Source of the DNA: Gammaproteobacteria bacterium
Lineage (GTDB): Bacteria; Pseudomonadota; Gammaproteobacteria; SURF-13
Direction: 5' to 3'
Length of the DNA: 64,000 bases
Assembly: GCA_003599485.1 (NCBI GenBank)
Contig: QZKM01000048.1
Coordinates: 10,428-74,427 of the forward strand
In this document: piece by piece, positions 1 to 63,289 of the stretch
Layout of the letters: every line of letters starts with the position of its first letter
Position numbering within the stretch: position 1 is the first letter of the stretch
Made by a program: the position numbers and the translations under genes
The notes under the pieces: generated by a model
Database searches by the model: none
The model's input: only the letters and a program-made list of their open reading frames with translations
Told to the model about the DNA's origin: nothing

Positions 1-1537
1 CCGGCTGGATGTTGATGATGAAACGGTTCGGCGCGTCATCCGGCAGACGCTGCTGCCAGCTTGCCAGCAAATCGGCGCGCACCAGGGTGAGCAGCAGCAA
101 GGCCATGATGCCGACGCCAAAGGCGAGGATTTGCGTAACGCTGCCCGCCGGGCGGCGCGCGATATTGGACAGGCCAAAGCGCCACGCCACGCCGACGCGG
201 GTGCGCAACCGCGCCAAACCCCGCACCAACAGCCAGGCCGTGCACGCCAGCACGGTGAGTGCACCCAGCGCGCCCGCAACGATATACGCGCCCAGCTTGA
301 AATCACCCGCCTGCCAGATCATCAAAGCGCCGAGCAGCGCGATACCCGCTAAATAGGCCGAAATGCCGCGCACAGGCGCACCCAGTTCACGCCGCAGCAC
401 ACGCAAGGCCGGCACGTTTTTCAGCGCCAGGAGCGGCGGCAGGGCGAAGCCGAGCAGCGTCACCAGGCCGGTGGCGAACCCGGACAGCGCCGGGCGCAGC
501 GAAGGCGGCGGCAGCGGAGCGGCGATGAGCCTGCCCAGCAAATCCGTGAACAAACCGTGCGCCGCATAACCCGCCCCACAGCCAAGCAGACCGGCCAGAG
601 CGCCCAGCCATAACATTTGATAAAAGAAACTTTGGCTGATAAACGCCTGCGGCGCGCCAAGACAACGCAGTATGGCGCAGGTGTCCAGATGGCGCACGCT
701 GTAGCGCCGCGCGGCGGTGGCCACCGCCGCGCCCGCGAGCAGCACGCTGACCAGCGCGGCCAAGCCCAGAAAGCGCTCGGCGCGCTCCAGTGCGGAGCGC
801 ACTTCAGGCCGCGCGTCTTGCACCGTCTCCAGGCGCTCGCCCGGCTGTAAACTGTTTTCCATGCCGGCGCGAAACTGCCGCACGCCGCCCGGCTCGCCCG
901 CGATCAGCAGGCGGTAGCGGATGCGGCTGCCGGTCTGCACCAGTCCGGTGGCGGGCACATCGTTGAGATTCATCAGCAGGCGCGGCGCAATACTGAACAT
1001 GTCGCCGCCGCGATCAGGCTCATGCGTCAGCAGCGCGGCAACGGTAAAGCGTGCCGCGCCAAGCATAAGCGTGTCACCGGTATTGAGTTTAAGCTGCTGC
1101 AACAGGCGCGCATCCACCCACACCGTACCGGGCGCGGGAATCGTACGCACGCTGTGCTCGGCGCCAAACAGTTGCGGCGCGATACGCAGCCTTCCGCGCA
1201 GTGGGTAGTTTTCGCTGACTGCCTTGACCTCGGCCAGTTGACTCACGTCGCCGGTGAGCGCCATGCTGGCAAAGCTCATCGTTGCAGCGTATTGCAGATT
1301 GAATTGCTGTGCGCGCGCCGTATATTGCGGCGGCGCCTGGTCGGACAGAATCACCAGGTCCGCGCCCAGCAGTTCATTGCCCTGCTCGCGCAGGGCCTGC
1401 TGCACGCGGTCGGTAGCAAACCCCACCGCGGTGACGCTGGCCACGGCGATGACGAGGGCGATGACCAGCACGCGCAATTCTCCCGCGCGCCAGTCACGCG
1501 CAAGCAGGTGCAGGGAAAATTGCAACGCGCGGCTCAC
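1..1537 (-). CDS. ABC transporter permease, FtsX-like (YbbP family); 3' end cut by window edge
   Basis: Reverse-strand translation from GTG at 1537 reads [35 protein letters not shown]... The GTG overlaps the upstream ATPase stop (GTGA). Synteny tesA / ybbA / ybbP. Confidence 0.75.
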   Translation of the reverse strand, partial: MSRALQFSLHLLARDWRAGELRVLVIALVIAVASVTAVGFATDRVQQALREQGNELLGADLVILSDQAPPQYTARAQQFNLQYAATMSFASMALTGDVSQLAEVKAVSENYPLRGRLRIAPQLFGAEHSVRTIPAPGTVWVDARLLQQLKLNTGDTLMLGAARFTVAALLTHEPDRGGDMFSIAPRLLMNLNDVPATGLVQTGSRIRYRLLIAGEPGGVRQFRAGMENSLQPGERLETVQDARPEVRSALERAERFLGLAALVSVLLAGAAVATAARRYSVRHLDTCAILRCLGAPQAFISQSFFYQMLWLGALAGLLGCGAGYAAHGLFTDLLGRLIAAPLPPPSLRPALSGFATGLVTLLGFALPPLLALKNVPALRVLRRELGAPVRGISAYLAGIALLGALMIWQAGDFKLGAYIVAGALGALTVLACTAWLLVRGLARLRTRVGVAWRFGLSNIARRPAGSVTQILAFGVGIMALLLLTLVRADLLASWQQRLPDDAPNRFIINIQP

Positions 1538-2214
1538 GCCACCAGCCGTCCCGCGTCCAGTTTCAGACGCCTGCCGCAGCGCTGCGCCAGCGCTTCATCG
1601 TGCGTCACCATAATCAGGGTGGAGCCCCGCTCACGATTCAGTTCAAACAAAAGATCAATAATGCGCGCGCCGGTGGCCTGATCGAGATTTCCGGTCGGCT
1701 CGTCGGCCAGCAGCAGTTTTGGCCGTGGCGCGAACGCGCGCGCAATGGCGACGCGCTGCTGCTCGCCGCCGGACAACTGCCTGGGATAATGACGCAGACG
1801 CGGTGCAAGTCCGGCGCGCGCCAGCACGTCGCCCGCCTGCGCGCGCGCCTGCTGCGCCGGCTGGCCCGCGAGTTCCAGCGGCAACATGACGTTCTCCAGC
1901 GCGGTCAGGCTGGGCAATAGTTGAAAAGTCTGGAACACAAAGCCGATCATGCACCCGCGCAGCGCGGCGCGCCCGTCTTCATCCAGCGCGAACAAGTCAT
2001 GGCCGTCGAGCAGCACGCGCCCGCCGCTGGGCACGTCCAGCCCGGCGAGCAAACCGAGCAGGGTGGTCTTGCCGGAGCCGGACGCGCCGAGGATGGCGCA
2101 CGCTTCGCCCGGCGTCACGCTGAAATTAATGTCCCGCAACAACGTCAGTTCGCCCTCGGGGCCTGATACTTGCTTGCCGAGGCCCTGCACCTGCACAATG
2201 GGCTGTAATGACAT
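1534..2214 (-). CDS. ABC transporter ATP-binding protein (YbbA/LolD-like)
   Basis: Walker [13 protein letters not shown] signature LSGGEQQRV, Walker B LLLADEPT. Divergent from tesA as in enterobacterial tesA-ybbA. Confidence 0.9.
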
Positions 2215-2870
2215 TGAAATCCTTCCTGTTAGCCTGCGGGCTTATTCTATCCTGCGCCGCACAGGGAAGTGCTAGTGTCGCGGGAGGCAGGATGCCGGGA
2301 GCGACCGCCGCGCATGCGGCGGCGGACAAATCCATCCTGGTGCTGGGCGATAGTTTGAGCGCGGCTTACGGCATCGAGCAAAGCGCGGGCTGGGTGAGCT
2401 TGCTGGAGCGGCGCCTGCAACAGCAAGGTTATCGCTACCGCGTGGTCAACGCCAGCATCAGCGGCGACACCACCAGCGGCGCATTGGCGCGCCTGCCACG
2501 CGCACTCGATGCGCACCGGCCGGACATCGTGATCGTGGAACTGGGCGGCAACGACGGCTTGCGCGGCCTGTCCTTGAGTGAGTCGCAGAAGAATCTGGCT
2601 GCGATCATCGAGCAATGCCGGCAACGCAACATACGCGTGTTGTTGATCGGCATGCGCCTGCCGCCAAATTACGGCCCGCAATACACGGAAAAGTTCCAGC
2701 AGATGTATCCCGATCTCGCGCGGCGCTATCGCGTGCCGCTGGCGCCGTTTCTGCTGGAAGGCGTAGCGGGCAACAAAGACCTGATGCAGCCGGACGGTGT
2801 GCATCCACGCGCCGAGGGACAGCCCATCATGCTGGAAAACGTGTGGCACGCGTTGCAGCCGATGTTGTAG
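2208..2870 (+). CDS. tesA: GDSL arylesterase / acyl-CoA thioesterase I / lysophospholipase L1
   Basis: N-terminal signal peptide, then GDSL block ILVLGDSLSAAYG. The N-terminus carries a 14-aa insert encoded by a dispersed mini-repeat (see findings). Confidence 0.85.
   Translation: MTLKSFLLACGLILSCAAQGSASVAGGRMPGATAAHAAADKSILVLGDSLSAAYGIEQSAGWVSLLERRLQQQGYRYRVVNASISGDTTSGALARLPRALDAHRPDIVIVELGGNDGLRGLSLSESQKNLAAIIEQCRQRNIRVLLIGMRLPPNYGPQYTEKFQQMYPDLARRYRVPLAPFLLEGVAGNKDLMQPDGVHPRAEGQPIMLENVWHALQPML
2265..2307 (+). repeat. in-frame palindromic mini-insert, copy 1 (in tesA)
   Basis: ggaagtgctagtGTCGCgggaggcaggatgccgggagCGACcg; encodes SASVAGGRMPGAT between signal peptide and GDSL domain. Confidence 0.8.
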
Positions 2871-5439: not shown

Positions 5440-6376
5440 CCTTGCGCAGCAGCTTTATCAAGTGAGTCATGTCGGCGGGTAGCGGCGCTGACCACTCCAT
5501 CCTCTCGCCCGTTGCTGGATGCGTAAGGGCGAGATGCGCGGCGTGCAGCGCCTGGCGCTTGAAACCGCGCAGCGCCTCGCGCAATTCCATGCTGCACGAC
5601 GGCGGCATACGCAGGCGTCCGCCGTAAACCGGGTCGCCCAGCACGGGGTGCCGGATGTGCGCCATGTGCACCCGTATCTGGTGCGTGCGCCCGGTTTCCA
5701 GCATGATCTTGACGAGGGTGTGGGCGCGGAAACGTTCCTGCACGCGGTAATGGGTGATCGCGCTCTTGCCCTGCCCGCTTTGCGTCACCGCCATGCGCGT
5801 GCGGCTGACGCGGTGCCTGCCCAGCGGCGCCTCGATACATCCGCCCGCGATGATCTCGCCGTTGATCAGGGCGGCGTACTCGCGCTGCACCGTGTGCGCC
5901 TGCAATTGTTTGACCAGTGACTTTTGCGCGCCGAGCGTGCGCGCCACCACCAGCAAACCGCTGGTGTCCTTATCCAGCCTGTGCACGATGCCAGCGCGCG
6001 GAATTTTGCGCAACTGCGGCGCGTAATATAGCAGCGCATTGAGCAACGTGCCCTCCGGGTTGCCCGCGCCGGGATGCGCCACCAGGCCCGGCGGCTTGTT
6101 GATGACGATCAATTCCGCATCTTCGTAGACGATATCGAGCGCGATGGACTGCGCGCGCCACTCGCCCTGCGCCTCGGCCAGCGCGTTTAATTCAATAAGC
6201 TCGCCGCCGCGCACCTTATCGCGCGGACGCCATGTTTTGCCGTCCACCGCCGCCCGGCCGCTGCGTATCCACTGCGCGAGGCGCGAGCGCGAGTAGGCCG
6301 GGAACAGCCGCGCCAGCGCCTGGTCTAAACGCAAACCCACCAACTCCGGCGGAACCTGCGCGGTTAAAGGCTGCAT
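5420..6376 (-). CDS. rluD: 23S rRNA pseudouridine(1911/1915/1917) synthase RluD
   Basis: S4 domain plus catalytic motif HRLDKDTSGLLVVA. Divergent from bamD as in E. coli. Confidence 0.9.
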   Translation of the reverse strand: MQPLTAQVPPELVGLRLDQALARLFPAYSRSRLAQWIRSGRAAVDGKTWRPRDKVRGGELIELNALAEAQGEWRAQSIALDIVYEDAELIVINKPPGLVAHPGAGNPEGTLLNALLYYAPQLRKIPRAGIVHRLDKDTSGLLVVARTLGAQKSLVKQLQAHTVQREYAALINGEIIAGGCIEAPLGRHRVSRTRMAVTQSGQGKSAITHYRVQERFRAHTLVKIMLETGRTHQIRVHMAHIRHPVLGDPVYGGRLRMPPSCSMELREALRGFKRQALHAAHLALTHPATGERMEWSAPLPADMTHLIKLLRKDVREHA

Positions 6377-8411: not shown

Positions 8412-11400
8412 GCATTCTTTCCGGTAGGTTCAGGCGCCGTCTCTGTCGGTCGTATTCGATCTGTAGCGTGGCGGAGCGCTTGCGGTCGCTGATGTCGACA
8501 AAACACGCACCGCCGATGAATGGCTCCAGGGTCATCACGGACTTCAGCGGTGTGGCAACGATCATCTGGAAACCGAAGTTGGTGAAAATTTTCATCGCCA
8601 GTTCGGTGAACTCGTTGTCTGCCTTGCCGAAGGCTTCATCCAGCACGACCGGCGCATACAGCGGCAACCCGCTGTCGCTGCCACCCAACTGGTAGCGCAG
8701 TGCGGCCGCGAGGCAGGTGGTGGCGAGTTTTTCGCGCTGGCCGCCGGACTTTCCCGCACCCGTGCGGTAAATTTCCACCTCCTGGCCGGCCTTGTCGTAT
8801 TCGCGTCCCATGAACTCCACGTGCTGGCGCACATCGAGGACCAGTTCCCGCCAGCGCTGATGCTCGCTTTCCGCCGAACCCAGCCTGTTCACCAGTTCGC
8901 GCAGGATACCAAAACGCGCCTCCGCACCCTCCGCGTCTGTAAGCCATGCGTTGTCCAGCACCTGTTTTACCTGTTCGCGAAATACCCTGACCTCCGGCAG
9001 ATAGCGGTCGTTGACGACAATCTCCAGGTGCGTGCCGTGACCGAACTCTGCCTGGGATAGACTCTCGTTCACTAGGTCCATGCGCTCACGTATCTCCTTG
9101 CGGGCCTTGGCAAGGTGGGTATTGAGCGCCGCCAGGTTCTCCGTACTCTGCTCCTTGAGCATGTCGAAAAAACGCTGCTCGTGCTTCGGCAGCCCATCGT
9201 GCTCCAGCCGCTCCAGCAGGACCATGAAATCCGGCGCCGAGGCCAAGGTCTCGTCCAGATCGCCGGCGTGTTCTCTCCATTCTCCGAGAAAACGGCTGAA
9301 GCATTTCTCGATCACCTGCTTCAAACTGCCCTGCTCGGTTTGCAGGCCTTCGATTTCCTTGCCAATTCCCCGCTCCACCGCGGTTCGTTGGCTTTCCAGA
9401 TTCTTGAGGGTGACCGGCTTGTCAATCGCCTCGAAGCGCGCCTTAAGCGCCTGCTGTTGATAATCAGTGAGCACGGCGGACTGCAGTTGCAGCCGCAACT
9501 CATCCAGTTCGTGACCATACTGATCGATTTGCTTTTTAACAACTATGCGTTCGGCACGCATGGCATTCAAGGCATCTTCAGCTTCCTTGAGCTTTGTCCG
9601 CTGTTGCATGATACGCTCGCCCAATTCCTTCAAAACACGGTTTCCGTCACTGAACTCGGCCAGCATCTTGTCTAGCGCATGAATACGATCCAGCATGCTG
9701 GCTACGTCGATCTCCTGCCATTGCAGATTGGTCAGAGTCTGGCAGGCCATGAGCCGCTCTTCCCGTTTCTCGCGGTCGGCCTCCAGTTGTTCTAGCTCTC
9801 GTCTGACCCGGCCGATCTCATCGGCCAATTGCTGCGCCCGCTCTTGATAAAGTCGCCGCTTTTCGCGGTTGTCGAAACCCAAAACCCACCCATGCGGGTC
9901 ATCGATGGGTCGCCGGTCGTCTTTCTCGTGCCGGGACCTGCCATGACGTACTTGACCTTCGCGCGTGACGGCCCGTTCGGTCTGGCGAAAATCCCTCATG
10001 TTGTCGACACAGGCGTAATCGAAACGGCGCCTGAACTCTGCGTCGAGCCAAGGCCGATAGGCGTTGTCCTTGAACAACAGCTTGTTGACCAGCGACCAAC
10101 TTTGCACCGGTTGCGTTGTGGATGTAATCGTGTCGGCCGCAACCCGGTGGTAAACCAAGCGTTGATTCAGGCGGGTCTCGTTAACGTAACTGGAGACGCC
10201 CGCGTAATGGCGCTCCTCGACGAGGAGCGAGAGCGCGAACCCTCGCAACACCCGCTCCACCGCGCCCTGCCACTCGGCGGCTTCCTTCCTGACCTCAATC
10301 AGTTCGCCGGCAAACGGCAAATCGCTTTCTGGCAAGCCGAGGGCGGTAGTCAGTTGCCGGCGCAGGTCCAGCATGTGGGCCGGAATATTGGAGGGCTGGC
10401 GCTGCATGGCCTCGACTTCCCGGCGCGTCTCGGAAAAACTCTTCTCCGCCTCGCGCTGGCGGACGTTCAGCGCATCGCGCTGCTCATCGGCGCGCCGGTT
10501 TGCCTCTCTGCGGCCCTCCAATATTCCCCGCGCCTCGGCGGCGAGCTCTGCAAACCCCTGTGGTGTATCCGGAAGCGAGCGGCCGAGCGTCTTACAGGCC
10601 GTTTCCGCTTGCCCGCGTTTGGCCATCCGGTCGTCCCGTTGCTGCTCGGCGGATTTCCTGTCCCGTTCCAGCTCCTGGATGCGCACGCCGCCTTGCTCCC
10701 GATGCTCCGCTTCCAGCAGGGCAAGCTGTGTCTTGTTATTGTCCAGCATCTCCTGCTGCCGGCGCTCCTCCCCCTCCAGCCCCTGATCCTGAGTCCGCAG
10801 GCGCTCGATTTCCTCGTCCAGCAGCTTCACCTTGCAACGGTCGCGGTAGGCATCGACACCGGCCCGCAACTCCTCCAGCCGGACCAGTTGCTCGCTATTC
10901 GATAGGAATTTTCGATGGTCGTCCCGCGCCGGACGCAGGGTATTCACCTGCCTGCGGGCCGTCACGACGGCTTGGTGGGCCGCGTCCAGTTCGGCAAATT
11001 CCTTCACCATGCGCTCAGTGACCTCGAAGGTGGGCGGCCGGTCGAGCATGTAGTCGCGAAGAAAGCTGTTAAGGTCACCGAGGTTCTTGGCCGACTGCGT
11101 CTTGTGCAGGAGCTTGAGCGCCATCTCCGACTCGATACCGAGCAGGCGGCGAAAGTGTTCGCCGTAAGCGCTGAACGTTTCGAAGTGGCGCACGTCCGAC
11201 AATTTGTGCTTGAGGTTACGCAGGTCCAAATCGAACTCCTTGAGTTCCGTCGCGATGTTGAAGGAACGCTCCGAAACCATGAAATGGTGCCGCACATCCG
11301 CAGCGCGGCTGGCGCTGCCGCGCAACCAGAGAATCTGCACAAGGCTCGCGCTCTGGCCAGCAAGGTTGGCGTACTCGACCGCCAGCGCCGACCAGGTAGT

Positions 11401-14502: not shown

Positions 14503-16128
14503 TTAGCTATCTCTCCCGCCCCACGTAATAGGATAACGCCGATCGCGGCCAAAGGCACGCGGGGTGATGCGCACACCGGGTGCGGCCTGGCGGCGTTTGT
14601 ATTCGTTGCGGTCCACCATGCGGATCACGCGCCGCACGGTTTGTTCGTCGAAGCCCGCGGCGATAATGTCCTCCGGCCGTTTGTCTTGTTCGACATACAG
14701 CTTGAGTATGGGATCGAGCACGGAATAAGGCGGCAGCGCATCGGTGTCTTTTTGGCCGGGCGCGAGTTCCGCCGTGGGCGCGCGCTCAAACACGCGCCGT
14801 GGAATCACCGGCTGGATGCGATTGCGGTATTCCGCGAGGCGGTACACGAGCAGCTTGGGCACGTCCTTGAGCGGCGCGAAACCGCCCGCCATGTCGCCGT
14901 ACAGCGTGGCGTAGCCCACCGACATCTCGCTCTTGTTGCCGGTGGAGAGCACGATGTTGCGTTTTTTATTGGCGATGGCCATGAGTACCACACCGCGGCA
15001 GCGCGCCTGGATATTTTCTTCCGTGACATCGGCGGGCAGTCCGGCGAATTCCTGTTTCAGACTGTCCAAAAATGCCTGAAAAGAAGGCTCAATGGAGATC
15101 AGGCTGTGTTTCACACCGAGGGCCTCGGCCACTGCCTTGCCGTCCTCAATACTGATGGGGGCGGTGTAGCGCGAGGGCATGAGCACCGCCTCGACACGTT
15201 CGGCGCCCAGGGCGTCCACGGCGACGGCCAGGGTCAAGGCGGAATCTATACCGCCGGAAACGCCGATCACCACGCCGTTGAAACCGTTTTTGTTCACATA
15301 ATCGCGCACGCCCAGCACCAGTGCTTGATACGCGCTTTGCTCCTCGCTTAACGGCGCGCGGCGCTCGCCCGGCTGCACAACGACGTTACCGTTCACCTGC
15401 AAATCCAATGGGAACAGGCCTTCGGCAAAGGCCGGTGCGCGCAGCATGAGTTGGCCCTCAGCGTCCACCGCGAGCGATTCACCGTCGAACACCAGTTCGT
15501 CCTGCCCGCCCACGAGATTGACGTAGACGATGGGCATCTCGCCCTGTTGCGCACGTTGCCTGAGCAACGCCACGCGTTCTTCGCCCTTGGCAAGGTGAAA
15601 CGGCGAGGCGTTGATGTTGATGAGCAGCCGTGCGCCGGCCTCGCGCGCCTGCCGTATCGGCCCCGGCATCCAGATGTCCTCGCAAATGCTGAGCGCCGTG
15701 GGCACACCCTCGATATCCACCACGCAGGCCCGATCGCCCGCGACAAAATAGCGCTTTTCGTCAAACACGCCGTAATTCGGCAGATGCTGTTTGAAGTAAC
15801 GCGCAAGGATGACGTCATCGCACAACAACGCGGCGGCATTATAGAGACGATGGTCTTCTTGATGCGGATAGCCGAACACTGCGGCGATGCCATTTATCCC
15901 GCGCTTCAACTCCTCGATGCCTTCCCGCACCTGCGCGTGCAGGTCAGGGCGCAGCAGCAAGTCCTCCGGCGGATAGCCGGTGAGCGCGAGTTCGGGAAAC
16001 ACAGCCACGTCGGCGCGCAGTTCGTCGCGCGCTTGATGCGCCGCGGCGATGATCTTGCACACATTACCGCGCACGTCGCCCACGCATAGATTGAGCTGGG
16101 CGGCGGCGATGCGTAAACGCGTGCTCAT
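14503..16128 (-). CDS. nadE: glutamine-dependent NAD+ synthetase
   Basis: 541 aa: N-terminal CN-hydrolase domain plus C-terminal NAD synthetase with P-loop SGGIDSAL. Start overlaps the sucD stop. Confidence 0.9.
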
Positions 16129-39405: not shown

Positions 39406-40731
39406 GTGAGCAGCACTGCTGAGGACGGCGCGGCATCTTCACCGGGCGCACGCGCGCCACGGCGCGAAATCTTCGCCTGGGCGATGTATGATTTCGCCAA
39501 CTCCGGCTATACCACCGTAGTCCTTACCGCCATCTACAGCGCCTATTTCGTCGGCGTGGTAGCGCAGGCGAGTGAGCCCGGCAACGGCGCCGCCACGCTG
39601 CTCTGGACGCTGGCCATGGGCATCAGCAATTTCCTGGTGCTGGCAAGCGCGCCGGTGCTTGGCGCCGTCGCCGATCACCGCGCCTGCAAGAAACCCTTTT
39701 TGCTGTTCACTACCGTGGGTTGCGTCCTGTTTACCGCCTTGCTGGGACTGGCCGGCCCGGGCGACATCGCCGCCGCCTTTTTGCTGGTGGCGCTGGCGAG
39801 CCTCATGTTCGGCAGCGGCGAAAATCTCATCGCGTCGTTCCTGCCCGAAATCGCCCGCCCGGAAGACATGGGGCGCGTCTCCGGCTATGGCTGGGCGCTC
39901 GGCTACCTCGGCGGACTGCTGGTGCTGGGTGTGTGTTTGGCGTGGATTGCCTGGGCGGAGGGGCGAGGGCAGGGCGCGTCCCAGTTTGTGCCGGTGACAC
40001 TATGGATCACCGCCGGCGCTTTCGCGCTCGCCACACTCCCCACGTTTCTGTGGCTGCGCGAGCGCGCCGTGCCTGCGCCGCTGCTGGAGGGCGAGAGCTA
40101 TTTCCGCGCCGGGCTCGCGCGCGTGCGCCACACCCTCGCGGAGGCGCGCCGCTTCCGTGACCTGTTCCGCTTCCTCATCACGCTCGCCGTTTACTATTGC
40201 GGCATCAGCACCGTCATCGTACTGGCGGCGGTGTACGCGCAACAGGCGATGGGTTTCAGCACCCGGGAAACCGTCGTGCTGATTCTGGTGGTCAACGTCA
40301 CGGCGGCGGCGGGCGCATTCCTGTTCGGTCATCTGCAGGATCGCTTCGGCTCGGTACGCACGCTCGCCGCCACCCTGCTGGTGTGGATCGCGGCGCTACT
40401 GCTCGCCTATTTCATCGAGTCCCGCGCGGGCTTCTGGACGGCGGCGAACCTGATCGGCCTGGCGCTGGGCTCCAGCCAGTCCGCAGGCCGCGCCCTGATC
40501 GGCCGGTTCTCCCCGCCCGAACGCTGCGCCGAATTCTTCGGCCTGTGGGGCCTGGCCGGCAAACTCGCCGCCATCGTCGGCCCGGTAAGCTACGGCCTCA
40601 TCACCTGGCTCTCCCGCGGCAACCACCGCCTGGCATTGCTCGCCACCGCGATATTCTTCATCGCCGGGCTGCTGCTCCTCCTCACCGTGAACGAACAGCG
40701 CGGCCGCCGCGCGGCTCTGGCTGAAGGCTGA
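39406..40731 (+). CDS. MFS transporter (UMF1/Atg22-like)
   Basis: 441 aa, about 12 TM segments. Its last about 15 nt plus a following REP are duplicated 1.2 kb downstream. Confidence 0.8.
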   Translation: MSSTAEDGAASSPGARAPRREIFAWAMYDFANSGYTTVVLTAIYSAYFVGVVAQASEPGNGAATLLWTLAMGISNFLVLASAPVLGAVADHRACKKPFLLFTTVGCVLFTALLGLAGPGDIAAAFLLVALASLMFGSGENLIASFLPEIARPEDMGRVSGYGWALGYLGGLLVLGVCLAWIAWAEGRGQGASQFVPVTLWITAGAFALATLPTFLWLRERAVPAPLLEGESYFRAGLARVRHTLAEARRFRDLFRFLITLAVYYCGISTVIVLAAVYAQQAMGFSTRETVVLILVVNVTAAAGAFLFGHLQDRFGSVRTLAATLLVWIAALLLAYFIESRAGFWTAANLIGLALGSSQSAGRALIGRFSPPERCAEFFGLWGLAGKLAAIVGPVSYGLITWLSRGNHRLALLATAIFFIAGLLLLLTVNEQRGRRAALAEG

Positions 40732-40734
40732 ACC

Positions 40735-40783
40735 AGCATGCGTAGGGTGAAATGCCCTTTGGTTACTGCGCCCTACGCTTGCT
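40735..40783. repeat. REP-like palindromic element (copy a)
   Basis: agcatgcgtagggtgaaatgccctttggttactgcgccctacgcttgct. Inverted, diverged relative of copy b. Identical copy at 41972..42020. Confidence 0.8.
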
Positions 40784-41273
40784 GGACAGCCCGCTGGTAC
40801 CGCGCCAACGCCTCCGGGTCATCGATCGATCCGTGATGGTGTACCTGCCGCCAGCCGAGCTGGCCGCCGAAATACTGGAAGACACGAGTCGTTCGTATCG
40901 CCAGGGGGACAGTGCGGCCGTCACGGATGAACTCGCCTCGCTCGCGACCAGCGAACACGACGGTGTCCTGGCCCACATATTCCACGACATCGTAGAACTC
41001 CACCCAGACCTGCGCGGGGCCGTCGAAGATGCGCTGGTACAGAGCGCGGATGTCGTCGAGCCCCCGCATGATCCCGCCCAGCGGATTGTTCAGCGAGACG
41101 AAGGGACCCTGCGCCCATACGGCCTCCAATACATCCAGAGAACGCTGGTTGAAGGCGAAGTAGAAACACTCGATCGCGGCACGCGCCCCCTCAACTGTCG
41201 GTTCACGCGCCTCGACCCCACGGTCGGCTGCGTCACGGCCGTATGTGCGCGATAGCGCCTGCGATGTTGGCAT
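40773..41273 (-). CDS. NTF2-like / SnoaL (DUF4440-type) family protein
   Basis: 166 aa. Pattern ...WRQVHHHGS at the C-terminus, typical of ketosteroid-isomerase-like fold proteins. Preferred over the overlapping + strand ORF. Confidence 0.55.
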   Translation of the reverse strand: MPTSQALSRTYGRDAADRGVEAREPTVEGARAAIECFYFAFNQRSLDVLEAVWAQGPFVSLNNPLGGIMRGLDDIRALYQRIFDGPAQVWVEFYDVVEYVGQDTVVFAGRERGEFIRDGRTVPLAIRTTRVFQYFGGQLGWRQVHHHGSIDDPEALARYQRAVQQA

Positions 41274-41317
41274 ACCTGTTTCCTTTCACCAGATGTCTTG
41301 ACGGGCTAACGGGATTG

Positions 41318-41361
41318 TAGCATGCGTAGGGCGCAATAACCGAAGGGCATTGCGCCGCATG
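41318..41361. repeat. REP element (copy b), hairpin GGCGCAAT...ATTGCGCC
   Basis: Perfect inverted partner of copy c at 41916..41950. Together they flank the RAYT gene. Confidence 0.85.
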
Positions 41362-41890
41362 TCAATCCACATATCCAAGCACGTCCTCATTACCGCCCGC
41401 CCAATCGGGCGGATAAATGCCTCGCTCGACCAAATGGTGAAATGTTGAATACGGCCAGTCTATCACGCGTTTGACCAAACCGTGTTTTACCGGGTTGATA
41501 TGCACATAATCCATATGGGCACGGAAATCCGCCTCGTCACGAATCAGGTGTTCCCAATAGCGCCGCTGCCAAATACCCCGCTCCCCGCGGGCGAGACGCA
41601 CCTGTGATCGTCGTTCGGTGGGCGGCAAGGCCTTGGAAAAGTCCACTTTAATCAACCGCCATCGGGTCGCAAAATCGGCATCGTTTGAGGGCAGTTCGAT
41701 CACGCAATGCAGATGATCGGGCAATACCACCCATCCAGGATGGCGAAGGGATGACGTTGCCGCACCGACTTCACCGTCTCCCGCAGCCTGTCGTAGTGAC
41801 GAGTCAGCAGGTCGTTGCCGTGCCGTTGCAGCAGGTTGACGGTGAAGAAAAAATGCCGCCTGGATGCCAGGCGCGACGGTAATCGGGCAT
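41362..41890 (-). pseudogene. REP-associated tyrosine transposase (RAYT / TnpA_REP, IS200-like HUH), disrupted by two -1 frameshifts
   Basis: The N-terminus [14 protein letters not shown], then [15 protein letters not shown]...[13 protein letters not shown], then [15 protein letters not shown]...RRYWEH...NPVKHG lie in three different frames. HUH (HLH) and catalytic Tyr (YWEH) are present. The first shift is in an A6/T6 homopolymer (41848..41853), the second near 41733..41736. Confidence 0.7.
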
Positions 41891-41915
41891 GGCGGTAGTA
41901 TCGGCATGTTCGACA

Positions 41916-41950
41916 TCCGGCGCAATGCCCTTCGGTTATTGCGCCCTACC
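41916..41950. repeat. REP element (copy c), inverted relative to copy b
   Basis: ggcgcaatgcccttcggttattgcgcc is the reverse complement of the copy b core. Confidence 0.85.
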
Positions 41951-41952
41951 GG

Positions 41953-42020
41953 GCTGGCTGAAGGCTGAACCAGCATGCGTAGGGTGAAATGCCCTTTGGT
42001 TACTGCGCCCTACGCTTGCT
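41953..42020. repeat. 68-bp direct repeat (copy 2) = MFS gene 3' end + REP copy d
   Basis: ggctggctgaaggctgaaccagcatgcgtagggtgaaatgccctttggttactgcgccctacgcttgct matches 40716..40783 nearly perfectly. Confidence 0.85.
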
Positions 42021-57440: not shown

Positions 57441-58490
57441 ATGCACATCGGGCCGTATAAATTAAGCAACAATCTGATTCTGGCGCCCATGGCGGGCGTC
57501 ACCGACCGTCCGTTCCGCCAGTTGTGCAAGCAACTCGGCGCGGGGATGGCGGTGTCGGAGATGGTATCCTCCAATTCACTGTTGTGGGGCAGCGCAAAGA
57601 CCCGGCGCCGCGCCAACCACGAGGGCGAGACCGAGCCGCGCATCATACAGATCGCCGGGGCCGATCCCGGACTCATGGCCGAAGCGGCGAAATACAATGT
57701 GGACAACGGCGCGCAAATCATAGATATCAACATGGGCTGCCCGGCAAAGAAAGTGTGCAACGTGATGGCGGGTTCGGCCTTGTTGCAGGACGAGCCGCTG
57801 GTGGCGCGCATCCTGGAGGCGGTGGTGCGCGCGGTGAAGGTCCCGGTTACGCTGAAAATCCGCACCGGCTGGAGCCGTGAGCACCGCAACGGCGTCACCG
57901 TGGCGCGCATTGCCGAGCAGTGCGGTATCCAGGCGCTGGCCGTGCACGGGCGCACGCGCGCCTGCGCCTTCGGCGGCGAGGCCGAATACGACACCATCGC
58001 GGCGATCAAGACCGAAGTAAAGATTCCGGTGATCGCCAACGGCGACATCCGTACACCGGAACAGGCAAAGGCCGTGCTCGACTACACGCGCGCCGACGGG
58101 ATCATGATCGGACGCGCCGCGCAGGGCCGCCCGTGGCTGTTCCGCGCCATCCAGCACTATCTGGAAACCGGCCGGCTCATGCCGGAGCCGGGCGCGGCTG
58201 AAATCCGCGCCATACTCACGGGCCACATGCACAATCTGTACGCCTTTTACGGCGAGCATACCGGCGTGATGATGGCGCGCAAACACCTGTCCTGGTACAG
58301 CAAGGGACAAAGCGGCAGCGCGCAATTCCGGCTGGCCATCAACGCAGCCGCCAGCAGCGCGCAGCAATTGGCTCTCACCCGGCAATTTTTCGACGCACAA
58401 GGACGTGCTAGTGTCGCGGGAGGCAGGACGCCGGGAGCGACCGATGGCCTGCTGCACTCCGGGCGCGGCATCGAGGAGCTCGCGGCGTGA
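57441..58490 (+). CDS. dusB: tRNA-dihydrouridine synthase B
   Basis: DUS TIM-barrel motifs (LAPMAGVTD, catalytic Cys in NMGCP). Followed by fis as in E. coli. The C-terminus is extended by the dispersed mini-repeat. Confidence 0.9.
   Translation: MHIGPYKLSNNLILAPMAGVTDRPFRQLCKQLGAGMAVSEMVSSNSLLWGSAKTRRRANHEGETEPRIIQIAGADPGLMAEAAKYNVDNGAQIIDINMGCPAKKVCNVMAGSALLQDEPLVARILEAVVRAVKVPVTLKIRTGWSREHRNGVTVARIAEQCGIQALAVHGRTRACAFGGEAEYDTIAAIKTEVKIPVIANGDIRTPEQAKAVLDYTRADGIMIGRAAQGRPWLFRAIQHYLETGRLMPEPGAAEIRAILTGHMHNLYAFYGEHTGVMMARKHLSWYSKGQSGSAQFRLAINAAASSAQQLALTRQFFDAQGRASVAGGRTPGATDGLLHSGRGIEELAA
58401..58443 (+). repeat. in-frame palindromic mini-insert, copy 2 (dusB C-terminus)
   Basis: ggacgtgctagtGTCGCgggaggcaggacgccgggagCGACcg; encodes RASVAGGRTPGAT. 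Confidence 0.8.
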
Positions 58491-61679: not shown

Positions 61680-62138
61680 CTAATGAATCGCCCGCAGCAG
61701 TTCGCTTTCCAGTGCGTCCAGATCGGGGATCGTGGCGGGCTCGCCGTTCACCAGCACCTGGCACAAGGCCAACGGCCTCAGCATGGTTTCATGCTCAATA
61801 GGCTGTAGATTGGCTTCGTCCACCTGCGCCAGCTGGGGGATGCCCTGGGTCATCACGGCGAAGAACGGCAAGGCCGCGTTGCCGTTCAAGGTGTTCAGCA
61901 CGGCCAGGCGCGCATGAGGATTCAGCGCGGGCACGGCCTCGCCGCAAACCGCCTCAAAGGAAATCAGCGGAATCTCCTGCCCGCGCCAGTTCACGCGGCC
62001 CAGCAAAAATGAAGGCGCGCCCTCCAGAGGCTCCGGTTCGATGTAAGGCACGATCTCGGCGATGGCCGTATTAGGCAGGATGAGCCGCCCGCCCTGCAGC
62101 GGGATCAGTTGAGTACGCAGGGCAAGCGCGTTGGCCAT
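61680..62138 (-). CDS. cheW: CheW-like chemotaxis coupling protein
   Basis: 152 aa, CheW-domain pattern (LLGRVNWRGQEIPLISF). Confidence 0.75.
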   Translation of the reverse strand: MANALALRTQLIPLQGGRLILPNTAIAEIVPYIEPEPLEGAPSFLLGRVNWRGQEIPLISFEAVCGEAVPALNPHARLAVLNTLNGNAALPFFAVMTQGIPQLAQVDEANLQPIEHETMLRPLALCQVLVNGEPATIPDLDALESELLRAIH

Positions 62139-63289
62139 CAGCCCAGCGCCTCAAGCGCCTGCGCGCCTGCTCGCGCGTCGCGCACATGCTCCATCAAGCG
62201 CGCCGCAAGCTGTTCCGGCGTACCGCTGTAGCTGACCACGCCCGCCTTGCGCGCCTGATCCGGCATGCCGGAGATGAGGCAACTGCCAGCGTCTTGCGCC
62301 CACACCTCTCCGCCCTGAGCGTGCAGCGTGCGTGCGCCCTTCACGCCGTCGTCACCCATGCCGCTGAACAGGATCATACCGCAGCGCCCGCCATAGCGAG
62401 CCGCCACTTCAGTGATGGCCGCATCAATGGAGGGTTTATAAAAAATGCCGCCGTCGCTGAGTTGCGTGAACCGCACCAGCCCGCCCGCGCCTATCAGCAG
62501 CCGGCTCTCCACCGGCGCGAGCACCACTTCGCCGTGCGTCAGGACGTGCCCCGGTTGCGCAGACAGCACGCGCAACCCGGTCACCGCGCCGAGCTGCTGC
62601 GCCAGCAGACCGATGAAGTCCGCGCCGATATGCTGCGCCAGCACCAGGCACGCCGGCAGATCGCGGGGCAACGCCGCCAGGAAACGTTTCAGCGCCTGCG
62701 GCCCGCCGATTGAAGCGCCCAGCACCCATACCCGGGCGGCAGGCTGAACCTGGCCGCGCTGGGGAGCCGGGCTTAGCCGCTCCCGGCGTCCTGCCTCAGT
62801 CGCTCCCGGGATCCTGCCTCCCGCGACATTATTAGTACCTCCCTGTACGTCACGCGACACTGGCAGAACCCCCCGCTGTCGCTTTTCCCCGTACGGCGCC
62901 GGTGTGGCGGCCGGCGCGGAGGCAGTCTTGCCGTCTGCGCGACCGCTGTGCGCCAAGGTAGTCAGCTTGCGCGCCAGGGCCTTGCCCCACTCGCCGTTCA
63001 ATAACGCCGCGCTGAGCCGCGTGGCGGGGCTGTCATTGAACACGATCGGGACGGCCTGTTGCGCGAGCAAGACGTCGAGCAACTCCTGTTCCGCGTTATC
63101 TTCGCCCGCAAGATCGAGCAGCAGCACGTCCACCTCGTCCGGACGGAGCATGCACGGAAATTCCCCGCATGACTTGGCGAACACCACGCACAGCGCGTTC
63201 CGCTCCAGCAGCGCCTTGAGCAGGGCGCGCTGATTCTCCGAACTGGAGACGATGCCGACGCGCGGGCTTTGCGCAGGGCCGTCCATCAA
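62138..63289 (-). CDS. cheB: CheB-like protein-glutamate methylesterase with atypical N-terminal domain
   Basis: C-terminal CheB_methylest domain (VWVLGASIGGPQAL..., GMGDDG). The linker carries the in-frame mini-repeat. Confidence 0.8.
   Translation of the reverse strand: MMDGPAQSPRVGIVSSSENQRALLKALLERNALCVVFAKSCGEFPCMLRPDEVDVLLLDLAGEDNAEQELLDVLLAQQAVPIVFNDSPATRLSAALLNGEWGKALARKLTTLAHSGRADGKTASAPAATPAPYGEKRQRGVLPVSRDVQGGTNNVAGGRIPGATEAGRRERLSPAPQRGQVQPAARVWVLGASIGGPQALKRFLAALPRDLPACLVLAQHIGADFIGLLAQQLGAVTGLRVLSAQPGHVLTHGEVVLAPVESRLLIGAGGLVRFTQLSDGGIFYKPSIDAAITEVAARYGGRCGMILFSGMGDDGVKGARTLHAQGGEVWAQDAGSCLISGMPDQARKAGVVSYSGTPEQLAARLMEHVRDARAGAQALEALG
62776..62843 (-). repeat. in-frame palindromic mini-insert, copy 3 with partial tandem duplication (cheB-like linker)
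   Basis: Reverse complement reads ggtactaataatGTCGCgggaggcaggatcccgggagCGACtgaggcaggacgccgggagcggc; encodes NNVAGGRIPGATEAGRRER. Confidence 0.75.

Follow-up and report, generated by a model that had tools for sequence, protein, structure and literature searches.

The 64,000-nt window analysed here (positions 10,428 to 74,427 of contig QZKM01000048.1, assembly GCA_003599485.1, from a gammaproteobacterium of the SURF-13 lineage) carries a short palindromic repeat inside three genes, encoding a TesA-like GDSL lipase, DusB and a CheB-like protein. We regard it as likely that the three sites are copies of a 51-nt non-autonomous mobile element, and that insertion, mobilisation by an enzyme acting in trans and survival in protein linkers together make up a single explanation for them. 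The core reading of the initial annotation of the window, a family of in-frame palindromic mini-elements resembling the Rickettsia palindromic elements (RPEs), is supported, with its size, boundary and generality corrected.

Three copies of a 51-nt unit

The 29-nt core GTCGCGGGAGGCAGGANNCCGGGAGCGAC has exactly three exact matches in the window, at 2277-2305 and 58413-58441 on the forward strand and 62799-62827 on the reverse strand, and gave no match in 100 dinucleotide shuffles. These are the three copies that had been reported in the TesA-like, DusB and CheB-like genes. A covariance model run with filters off gave the three copies 61-81 bits and its next-best hit 12 bits, and so found no fourth copy in the window. 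As had also been noted, all three copies are in sense orientation to the host gene and in one common frame, with the shared peptide VAGGR(M/T/I)PGAT, and their arms (GTCGC/GCGAC and GGC(A)/(T)GCC) are self-complementary.

Alignment of the three copies indicates that conservation reaches upstream of the start first proposed. The repeat is real, but the unit is 51 nt long, not about 40 bp, and begins 10 nt further upstream; the sequence that had been taken as mere 5' flank contains a hairpin of its own (GYRC-AGGGAN-GYRC, hairpin 1) and is part of the unit. The consensus of copies aligned in register is YGACGYRCAGGGANGYRCNARUGYCGCGGGAGGCAGGANGCCGGGAGCGRC, equivalent to 17 codons and usually followed by C. 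Bases 5-10 belong to the element, as judged from covariation of positions 5 and 25 and from subfamily linkage.

Copy 1 encodes residues ~17-33 (AAQGSASVAGGRMPGAT) of the TesA-like protein, between its N-terminal hydrophobic segment and the GDSL domain. Copy 3 is placed ahead of the methylesterase domain of the CheB-like protein and has three extra nucleotides (UAA/AAU) in the linker between its two hairpins. The partial tandem duplication described next to it is present at 62776-62798; it contains a second GAGGCAGGACGCCGGGAGCGGC and is read in a shifted element frame (EAGRRER). The Shine-Dalgarno-like GGGAGG followed by ATG to which attention had been drawn is found in the tesA copy but is not conserved in the family, as the ATG is replaced by ACG, AAG or AGG in 46% of copies. 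Copy 2 ends 46 nt upstream of the fis start at 58487 (the fis call is taken from locus L120), and this start overlaps the dusB stop (GTGA). Because of this proximity, an RNA-level effect of the element could also touch fis translation.

Insertion polymorphism between close relatives

The window comes from a JGI metagenome contig whose gammaproteobacterium is placed near Sulfurivermis/Thiohalobacter. The element is recently mobile and still polymorphic between close relatives. Comparison with orthologs without the insert, a check proposed in the initial annotation, revealed relatives in which precisely 17 codons are missing from the tesA and dusB sites. At 96% identity, the DusB of P0002/L121 is missing AQGRASVAGGRTPGATD, precisely 17 residues; its empty site is TTTTTCGACG|GACTG, and the flanks of the insert are CGACG and CGATG. 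The TesA ortholog of P0122/L126 (87% identical, same N-terminus) is without exactly AAQGSASVAGGRMPGAT, and at this site CGCCGC is found on both sides of the insert when filled and once when empty.

Locus L122 (JBCKVB01), with proteins ~86-90% identical to those of the window, has copies in purD, purH and the dusB tail (Table 1) at sites which are empty in the window. Its 21 kb hold at least five strong copies, about one per 3-4 kb. This density, and the presence of the family in at least ~94 assemblies, bear out the genome-wide family that had been inferred from three copies. At 14898-14952 of the same locus a solo hairpin 1 (a 3'-truncated element) lies exactly at the point where synteny with the window breaks, with gshA, not the cheB-like gene, following cheW. 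This suggests a rearrangement or deletion with its endpoint in an element copy.

Conserved two-hairpin structure

Minimum free energy (MFE) folding and covariation yield the same two hairpins. Across the family, hairpin 1 has a 4-bp stem and an A-N-G-G-A-N hexaloop. In hairpin 2 the outer stem is 5 bp long, the internal loop is symmetric (GGGA/GGGA) and the apical stem, GGC/GCC, is closed by the loop AGGA(U/C/A). Mutual information among 110 distinct copies identified the Watson-Crick pairs 10-21 (UA 57, CG 46, GC 4), 11-20, 28-54 (UA 75, CG 28), 5-25 and 9-22, and the hairpin 1 pairs 10-21 and 11-20 covary across 110-116 copies. When the two-hairpin structure is imposed, 93.7% of cells pair, compared with 86.2% in shuffles (none of 500 reach the observed value) and 20-51% when the partners are slid.

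The codon over the variable loop position N encodes Ser, Cys, Gly or Arg freely while the stems stay complementary, and the constraint therefore acts on the nucleic acid and not on the peptide. An old copy in Tgt (L019) has lost the GGGA motifs of the internal loop and kept both GGA hairpins. Counts of G-U versus A-C mismatches point to no folding strand.

Reading frames and host proteins

Reading frames were assigned to 142 full-length copies using ORF length and a GC3-GC2 criterion, which left 22 ambiguous. The sense frame seen in the window (S0) is used by 64 copies, S1 by 12 and S2 by one; the antisense frames A0, A1 and A2 account for 9, 13 and 2, and the remaining 19 are in short ORFs or intergenic. 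Confidently called ORFs hold at least 101 of the 142, including 37 in other frames or antisense, and about a quarter of the genic copies are antisense. Four of the six frames are stop-free, and S0 makes up 64 of the 98 copies in these four frames (binomial P ~5e-17 against an expectation of 25%), an excess that stays significant after arrays and orthologous sites are collapsed. The statement that copies always lie in frame and in sense is thus true of the window, but S1, A0, A1 and intergenic copies elsewhere make it a strong bias and not a rule. The distribution is nevertheless far from the mostly intergenic or randomly framed one that the initial annotation had named as evidence against its proposal: copies are mostly genic, and 63% of those confidently genic are in the window's frame.

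Insertions of 17 codons were found in TesA, DusB, the CheB-like protein, PurD, PurH, Tgt, ClpB, DnaG, DnaE, ValRS/IleRS and HsdM. Positions along the ORFs are uniform among the 142 copies, with no enrichment near start codons. In DnaE the same loop was hit independently in different frames (L010 versus L070), and a homologous loop was hit in the paralogs IleRS (L014) and ValRS (L107). In Tgt, ClpB and DnaG the insertion position is common to orthologs of different genomes. At such shared sites the third-codon positions of the element are much better conserved than those of the flanks (0.88 versus 0.41 in ClpB, with a compensatory stem change). A word search with a concatenated S0-peptide query returned 187 candidates only, none of them significant, and was thus uninformative.

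That Tgt, ClpB and DnaG orthologs from different genomes carry one peptide at one position would also be expected if VAGGRxPGAT were a conserved protein motif or linker under amino-acid selection, with no insertion at all. These orthologs share the nucleotide element, however, with compensatory changes in its stems, and their nucleotide identity within it greatly exceeds that of the host genes. Close relatives have clean 17-codon gaps, the same DNA occurs in three other reading frames and between genes, and the amino acids vary where the stems co-vary. A protein motif is already refuted as an explanation by these observations, and we give it practically no credence.

Subfamilies, arrays and distribution

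A one-genome-per-species scan for GGGAGGCAGGANNCCGGGAGCG, a pattern that fixes the apical part of hairpin 2, detected at least 119 loci in ~94 assemblies. An nhmmer search added 28 copies without the exact core, which vary in the internal loop and have a co-varying apical stem (GCC..GGC, GCGC..GCGC). Head-to-tail arrays with a period of 51 occur in L057, L011, L042, L015 and L099, and nested inverted dimers with the same internal interruption point are found in at least five genomes (L008, L037, L082, L092 and L077). A 69-nt subfamily has 18 extra nucleotides (AGAGCGCYAGCGAAGGGTYC) inside hairpin 1; its length is still a multiple of three and it is common to several unrelated genomes. A sister family has the same architecture, with the apical hairpin 2 swapped for a second ANGGAU hairpin on a different 4-bp stem (e.g. 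GCGC-AGGGAU-GCGC). Subfamilies (T5/A25, GCC..C and the +18-nt variant) coexist in single genomes and recur between genomes. Fragments truncated at the 5' or the 3' end are exemplified by window positions 62776-62798, L122:14898-14952 and L110.

The element spans many orders of Gammaproteobacteria. The matches listed include Xanthomonadales, Lysobacter, Rhodanobacter, Arenimonas, Thermomonas, Sedimenticola, Thiohalomonas, Thiohalophilus, Thiohalomonadales, Acidiferrobacterales, Sulfurifustaceae, Ectothiorhodospiraceae, Gilvimarinus, Pseudomaricurvus, Porticoccaceae, Cellvibrionales, Ca. Endobugula, Photobacterium, Fluviicoccus, a Solemya symbiont and Nitrosomonas eutropha. Cultured strains are among the carriers (Sedimenticola hydrogenitrophicus, Lysobacter koreensis). 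No copy was present in 5,426 E. coli genomes and no match of note was found in the phage collection; two matches were to IMG/VR sequences and one to a plasmid, in a Lonsdalea primase gene (85% identity).

Isolated copies outside the main range lie in the DNA primase gene of Lonsdalea populi plasmid NZ_CP072857.1 (3584-3635), in a type I restriction-modification (R-M) methylase gene of Nitrosomonas eutropha (L073) and in a primase-like ORF of Fluviicoccus (L061). Genes for primases and R-M methylases are of types often transferred horizontally, and they may carry the element from taxon to taxon as a passenger. Two further carriers are metagenome-assembled genomes (MAGs) labelled 'Halobacteria archaeon' (L006) and 'Klebsiella pneumoniae' (L101, with a G+C content of 67%); these are probably mis-binned contigs.

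Spread of the element

In the explanation that we prefer, an enzyme supplied in trans would recognise the hairpins, and the unit would be inserted just 5' of a C, often within C(G/A)AC, a mimic of the element's own CGAC start. Insertion 5' of a CGAC-like target would explain the tandem arrays. The length, a multiple of three, together with the four stop-free frames means that insertions do not truncate host proteins. Surviving copies would accumulate in loops, linkers and termini, mostly in the sense frame for a small flexible peptide, D(A/V)QG(S/C/G/R)(A/T)SVAGGRxPGAT. The S0 excess would arise either because that peptide is best tolerated or because the C|GAC target is usually in codon phase. 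As the hairpins are identical in sequence to high-affinity CsrA/RsmA sites, sense transcripts probably bind CsrA.

The sequence 3' of the element resembles its CGACG start, with C in 110 of 139 copies (79%) followed weakly by G/A, A, C and G at ~45-50% each. Across the same 139 copies the match between element start and downstream flank is 2.55, compared with 2.40 in shuffles. A classical target-site duplication was not supported at the population level, and targeting of each copy's own 5' 8-mer was not significant once tandem copies were removed.

Several observations weigh against this explanation. There are no terminal inverted repeats: reverse-complementing the left end CGACGYRCAGGG does not give the right end GGTCGCTCCCGG, and what the two ends share is a direct CGAC. 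Nor is there a consistent target-site duplication at the population level. The search for a mobilising gene gave none: when 2,241 ORFs from the 119 loci listed were clustered all against all, no protein family recurred near copies, the clusters being paralogous ABC and two-component families and shared host genes only. Homologs of REP-associated tyrosine transposases (RAYTs; REP, repetitive extragenic palindrome) are present in 2 of ~125 loci, in both cases at a distance of over 2 kb and so never adjacent to the element, and within the 8-kb loci no transposase lies next to an element copy. That a 51-nt selfish element stays nearly identical from order to order is unusual for families of REPs or of miniature transposable elements with inverted repeats (MITEs), and mobility alone does not explain it. 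The third-position conservation in Tgt, ClpB and DnaG could be due to function in situ instead of selfish spread; it could also be due to recurrent insertion.

The absence of terminal inverted repeats and of a consistent target duplication is, in turn, what a relic of a single-stranded DNA transposon of the HUH/Y1 type would display. Such an element, similar to the palindrome-associated transposable elements (PATEs) of IS200/IS605 or to REPs and REPINs, would use its two hairpins as left and right recognition hairpins for a tyrosine transposase encoded elsewhere in the genome. Hairpins with similar loops are found at both ends, insertion is beside a short sequence like one of the element's own ends, the inverted doublets resemble REPINs, and a RAYT gene is present in the same window (41362-41976, minus strand). 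The RAYT, however, has flanking REPs of its own, of an unrelated GTAG type (40717-42020), and covers only positions 46-146 of the family model, and neither a RAYT nor a TnpA adjoins element copies in the 8-kb loci. REPs are extragenic and lineage-specific, whereas the element is mostly genic and crosses orders. The flanking target is weakly conserved and the G-U versus A-C counts do not identify the folding strand. We consider an HUH/Y1 origin unlikely, although plausible.

The region 40717-42020 of the window is a classical REP-RAYT locus, unrelated in sequence to the 51-nt element. The RAYT encoded there may be 5'-truncated.

Likeness to CsrA binding sites

The SELEX (systematic ligand evolution by exponential enrichment) consensus for CsrA is RUACARGGAUGU, and the ANGGAN hexaloop is contacted by RsmE. 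The repeat of the sponge RNA CsrB is CAGGA(U/A/C)G, and a CsrA dimer bridges sites 10-63 nt apart, with an optimum threshold of 18 nt. The hairpin 1 consensus GUACAGGGAUGU agrees with the SELEX consensus at 12 of 12 positions; the chance of such a 12-mer in a random 51-mer is ~1e-5. Conservation along its loop is A 93%, N free, G 97%, G 91%, A 92% and N free. The loop context of hairpin 2, CAGGA(U 54%/C 30%/A 14%)G, matches the CsrB repeat. The GGA of hairpin 1 (columns 15-17) and that of hairpin 2 (columns 40-42) are 25 nt apart, inside the bridging range.

These features raise the possibility that the element is a portable CsrA/RsmA-binding module, in which a dual high-affinity GGA-hairpin site would place the host mRNA under Csr control or titrate CsrA, and recognition by CsrA would keep the sequence constant across orders. 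The pattern of conserved and free loop positions is exactly ANGGAN on a 4-bp stem, the CsrB repeat is carried by hairpin 2 and the spacing is above the optimum threshold. The sister subfamily replaces the apical hairpin with another ANGGAU hexaloop hairpin, the old Tgt copy retains both GGA hairpins despite the loss of GGGA, and the host range is the Gammaproteobacteria, where Csr/Rsm systems are characteristic. Against this, orientation-dependent maintenance of hairpin 1 was rejected: it is intact in 87% of sense and 86% of antisense copies, and antisense transcripts would have UCC loops. The sense bias comes wholly from S0, with S1 (12 copies) similar to A0 (9) and A1 (13), and copies do not cluster close to start codons. 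E. coli lacks the element, and no similarity was found to the Csr/Rsm families of Rfam, which gave no relevant hit at gathering score in the whole window and 12 further loci, and no Csr/Rsm hit at E values up to 10 with copy 1 and a triple array. On balance a binding module of this kind seems to us a minority possibility, albeit one to be taken seriously. Combined with mobility it leads to a wider proposal, a horizontally spreading 51-nt cassette that would equip arbitrary genes, in frame, with a dimer-bridging CsrA/RsmA site; hundreds of copies in a genome would wire genes into the Csr regulon and act as a distributed CsrA sponge, and recognition by the ultra-conserved CsrA would hold the sequence constant. 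We view this proposal as rather improbable.

Likeness to CsrA sites would also be expected if the copies had been reverse-transcribed or template-switched from one repeat module of a sponge small RNA (sRNA) of the Csr/Rsm type, with conservation residing in the sRNA source. The 5'- and 3'-truncated fragments and the intergenic clusters of GGA hairpins that contain the module (e.g. L118) are in keeping with this. The coexistence of several subfamilies in one genome and their recurrence between genomes misfit one source gene per genome, no source sRNA was found and Rfam searches were empty, and no reverse transcriptase recurs near copies. We therefore hold an origin from a sponge sRNA to be very improbable, and retain a mobile element moved in trans as the likely explanation.

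Two loci contain element sequences in a setting possibly related to Csr. In L110 (5292-5920) a diverged element copy (5571-5622) lies ~80 nt downstream of a csrA gene, whose identity to E. coli CsrA is 77%, and has the same strand. It is succeeded by a 5' fragment of tRNA-Ser that is duplicated and comes with a further element-like piece, and this in turn by the intact tRNA-Ser (5978-6071). In L118 (~560-1160, minus strand) GGA-loop hairpins and pieces of the element, facing both ways, crowd an intergenic stretch that lies downstream of a terminator and has no Rfam hit. The stretch may be an sRNA region of the Csr/Rsm type or a graveyard of elements.

Table 1. Positions of element copies, host genes and other features in the window and in related loci. 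Positions without a locus name are those of the window.
Feature	Position	Strand	Remarks
Copy 1, full 51-nt element	2255..2305	+	In TesA-like GDSL lipase gene; pattern and covariance model hits
Hairpin 1 of copy 1	2259..2272	+	GCAC-AGGGAA-GUGC, 4-bp stem, ANGGAN hexaloop; MFE fold, covariation
Hairpin 2 of copy 1	2277..2305	+	Outer stem GUCGC/GCGAC, symmetric GGGA/GGGA internal loop, apical GGC-AGGAU-GCC; MFE fold, covariation
Copy 2, full 51-nt element	58391..58441	+	In dusB C-terminal tail; pattern and covariance model hits
Copy 3, element with 3 extra nt	62799..62852	-	In linker of CheB-like protein; pattern and covariance model hit, 61 bits
Partial duplicate, 23 nt, of 3' part of hairpin 2 (UGAGGCAGGACGCCGGGAGCGGC)	62776..62798	-	Adjoins copy 3
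Host ORF, GDSL lipase/TesA-like protein	2208-2870	+	
Host ORF, Dus (DusB)	57441-58490	+	
Host ORF, CheB-like	62138-63289	-	CheB methylesterase domain at residues 188-365
purD copy	L122		+17 aa; window's frame
purH copy	L122		+23 aa; 69-nt variant, sense frame S1
dusB-tail copy	L122		Antisense, read as VAPGILPPATL
69-nt subfamily members	L027, L087, L090, L092(-), L008:5560-5628, L122:12500-12577 and 10980-11057(-)		
Sister family members	L012:4169-4219, L096, L098, L101:5768-5820, L115, L125:4135-4184, L006, L044		
RAYT ORF	41362-41976	-	NF047646 at 7e-44, profile positions 46-146 only
Inverted 38-nt GTAG-type REPs flanking RAYT	41326-41363 and 41912-41949		
Identical 67-nt direct repeats bracketing REP-RAYT locus	40717-40783 and 41954-42020		
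SnoaL-like ORF inside REP-RAYT locus	40773-41273	-	

Significance and comparison with known systems

The known cases of in-frame selfish DNA in essential genes come mainly from Rickettsia and a few MITEs. The 51-nt element is a much smaller case (17 codons) with a precisely defined structure, polymorphic and spread over many orders that include cultured strains. It offers a tractable system for studying how proteins tolerate or recruit inserted peptides, and which enzyme moves a 51-nt unit that has neither terminal inverted repeats nor a gene of its own. If its identity with CsrA sites proved functional, it would be the first mobile element to spread binding sites for a global RNA-binding regulator and a bacterial counterpart of the transposon-borne regulatory sites of eukaryotes; a mobile CsrA-site cassette would, if true, be a mobile post-transcriptional regulatory element. 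Annotators should be able to recognise the element, as it inflates protein lengths, makes spurious 'conserved motifs' and causes repeat-induced assembly breaks in MAGs.

A full-text literature search for the core sequence found unrelated primers only, and keyword searches gave general papers on MITEs, REPs and RPEs with no description of the element. There is thus no prior description of the 51-nt element in the literature searched, while in-frame mini mobile elements as such are already known.

The initial annotation likened the element to RPEs, and this is apt for its behaviour as a frame-preserving, intragenic palindromic mini-element, but by its length and host lineage it is not a member of an RPE family. 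RPEs are likewise palindromic selfish repeats that lie in frame in unrelated housekeeping genes and are translated within the host protein, typically at surface-compatible positions. By description they are ~100-150 bp long, fall into several families found in Rickettsia only and code for longer conserved peptides, whereas the element has 51 nt (69 nt in the long variant), two GGA-loop hairpins and 51-nt tandem arrays, and occurs in many gammaproteobacterial orders. MITEs such as QMITE1 of Coxiella, intragenic enterobacterial repetitive intergenic consensus (ERIC) sequences and the MITEs of Anabaena are also small and non-autonomous and sometimes form in-frame fusions in ORFs. Their defining marks are terminal inverted repeats and target-site duplications, and they usually exceed 100 bp; the element has no such repeats, and direct repeats flank it only occasionally.

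REPs and REPINs, mobilised by RAYTs, share with the element a short GC-rich hairpin, non-autonomy, the absence of terminal inverted repeats, the occurrence of inverted doublets and, here, a RAYT in the same window. REPs have a GTAG/CTAC head, are extragenic and lineage-specific and flank their RAYT, and none of this applies to the 51-nt element. The foot of its hairpin has no GTAG or CTAC, in contrast to the window's own REPs (GCGTAGGG..CCCTACGC). The PATEs of IS200/IS605 are similar in their subterminal hairpins, in lacking terminal inverted repeats and an obligatory duplication, and in inserting beside a short motif like the element end. They are longer, keep identifiable IS ends and use a strict target tetra- or pentanucleotide, whereas the element has one strong flanking base, and no parent IS was found for it.

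CsrA/RsmA sites and the sponge RNAs CsrB, RsmY and RsmZ have in common with the element GGA in ANGGAN or CAGGA(U/C/A)G hairpin loops and two sites at bridging distance, and its tandem arrays resemble the repeated modules of the sponge RNAs. Known sites are fixed in 5' leaders or in dedicated sRNA genes, whereas the element is a mobile unit in coding sequence that has no Rfam match and whose binding is predicted. Judged by the features that define each of them, the element falls outside the RPE, MITE, REP and Rfam Csr families; it works in the manner of an in-frame selfish insert, with hairpins that look like CsrA sites.

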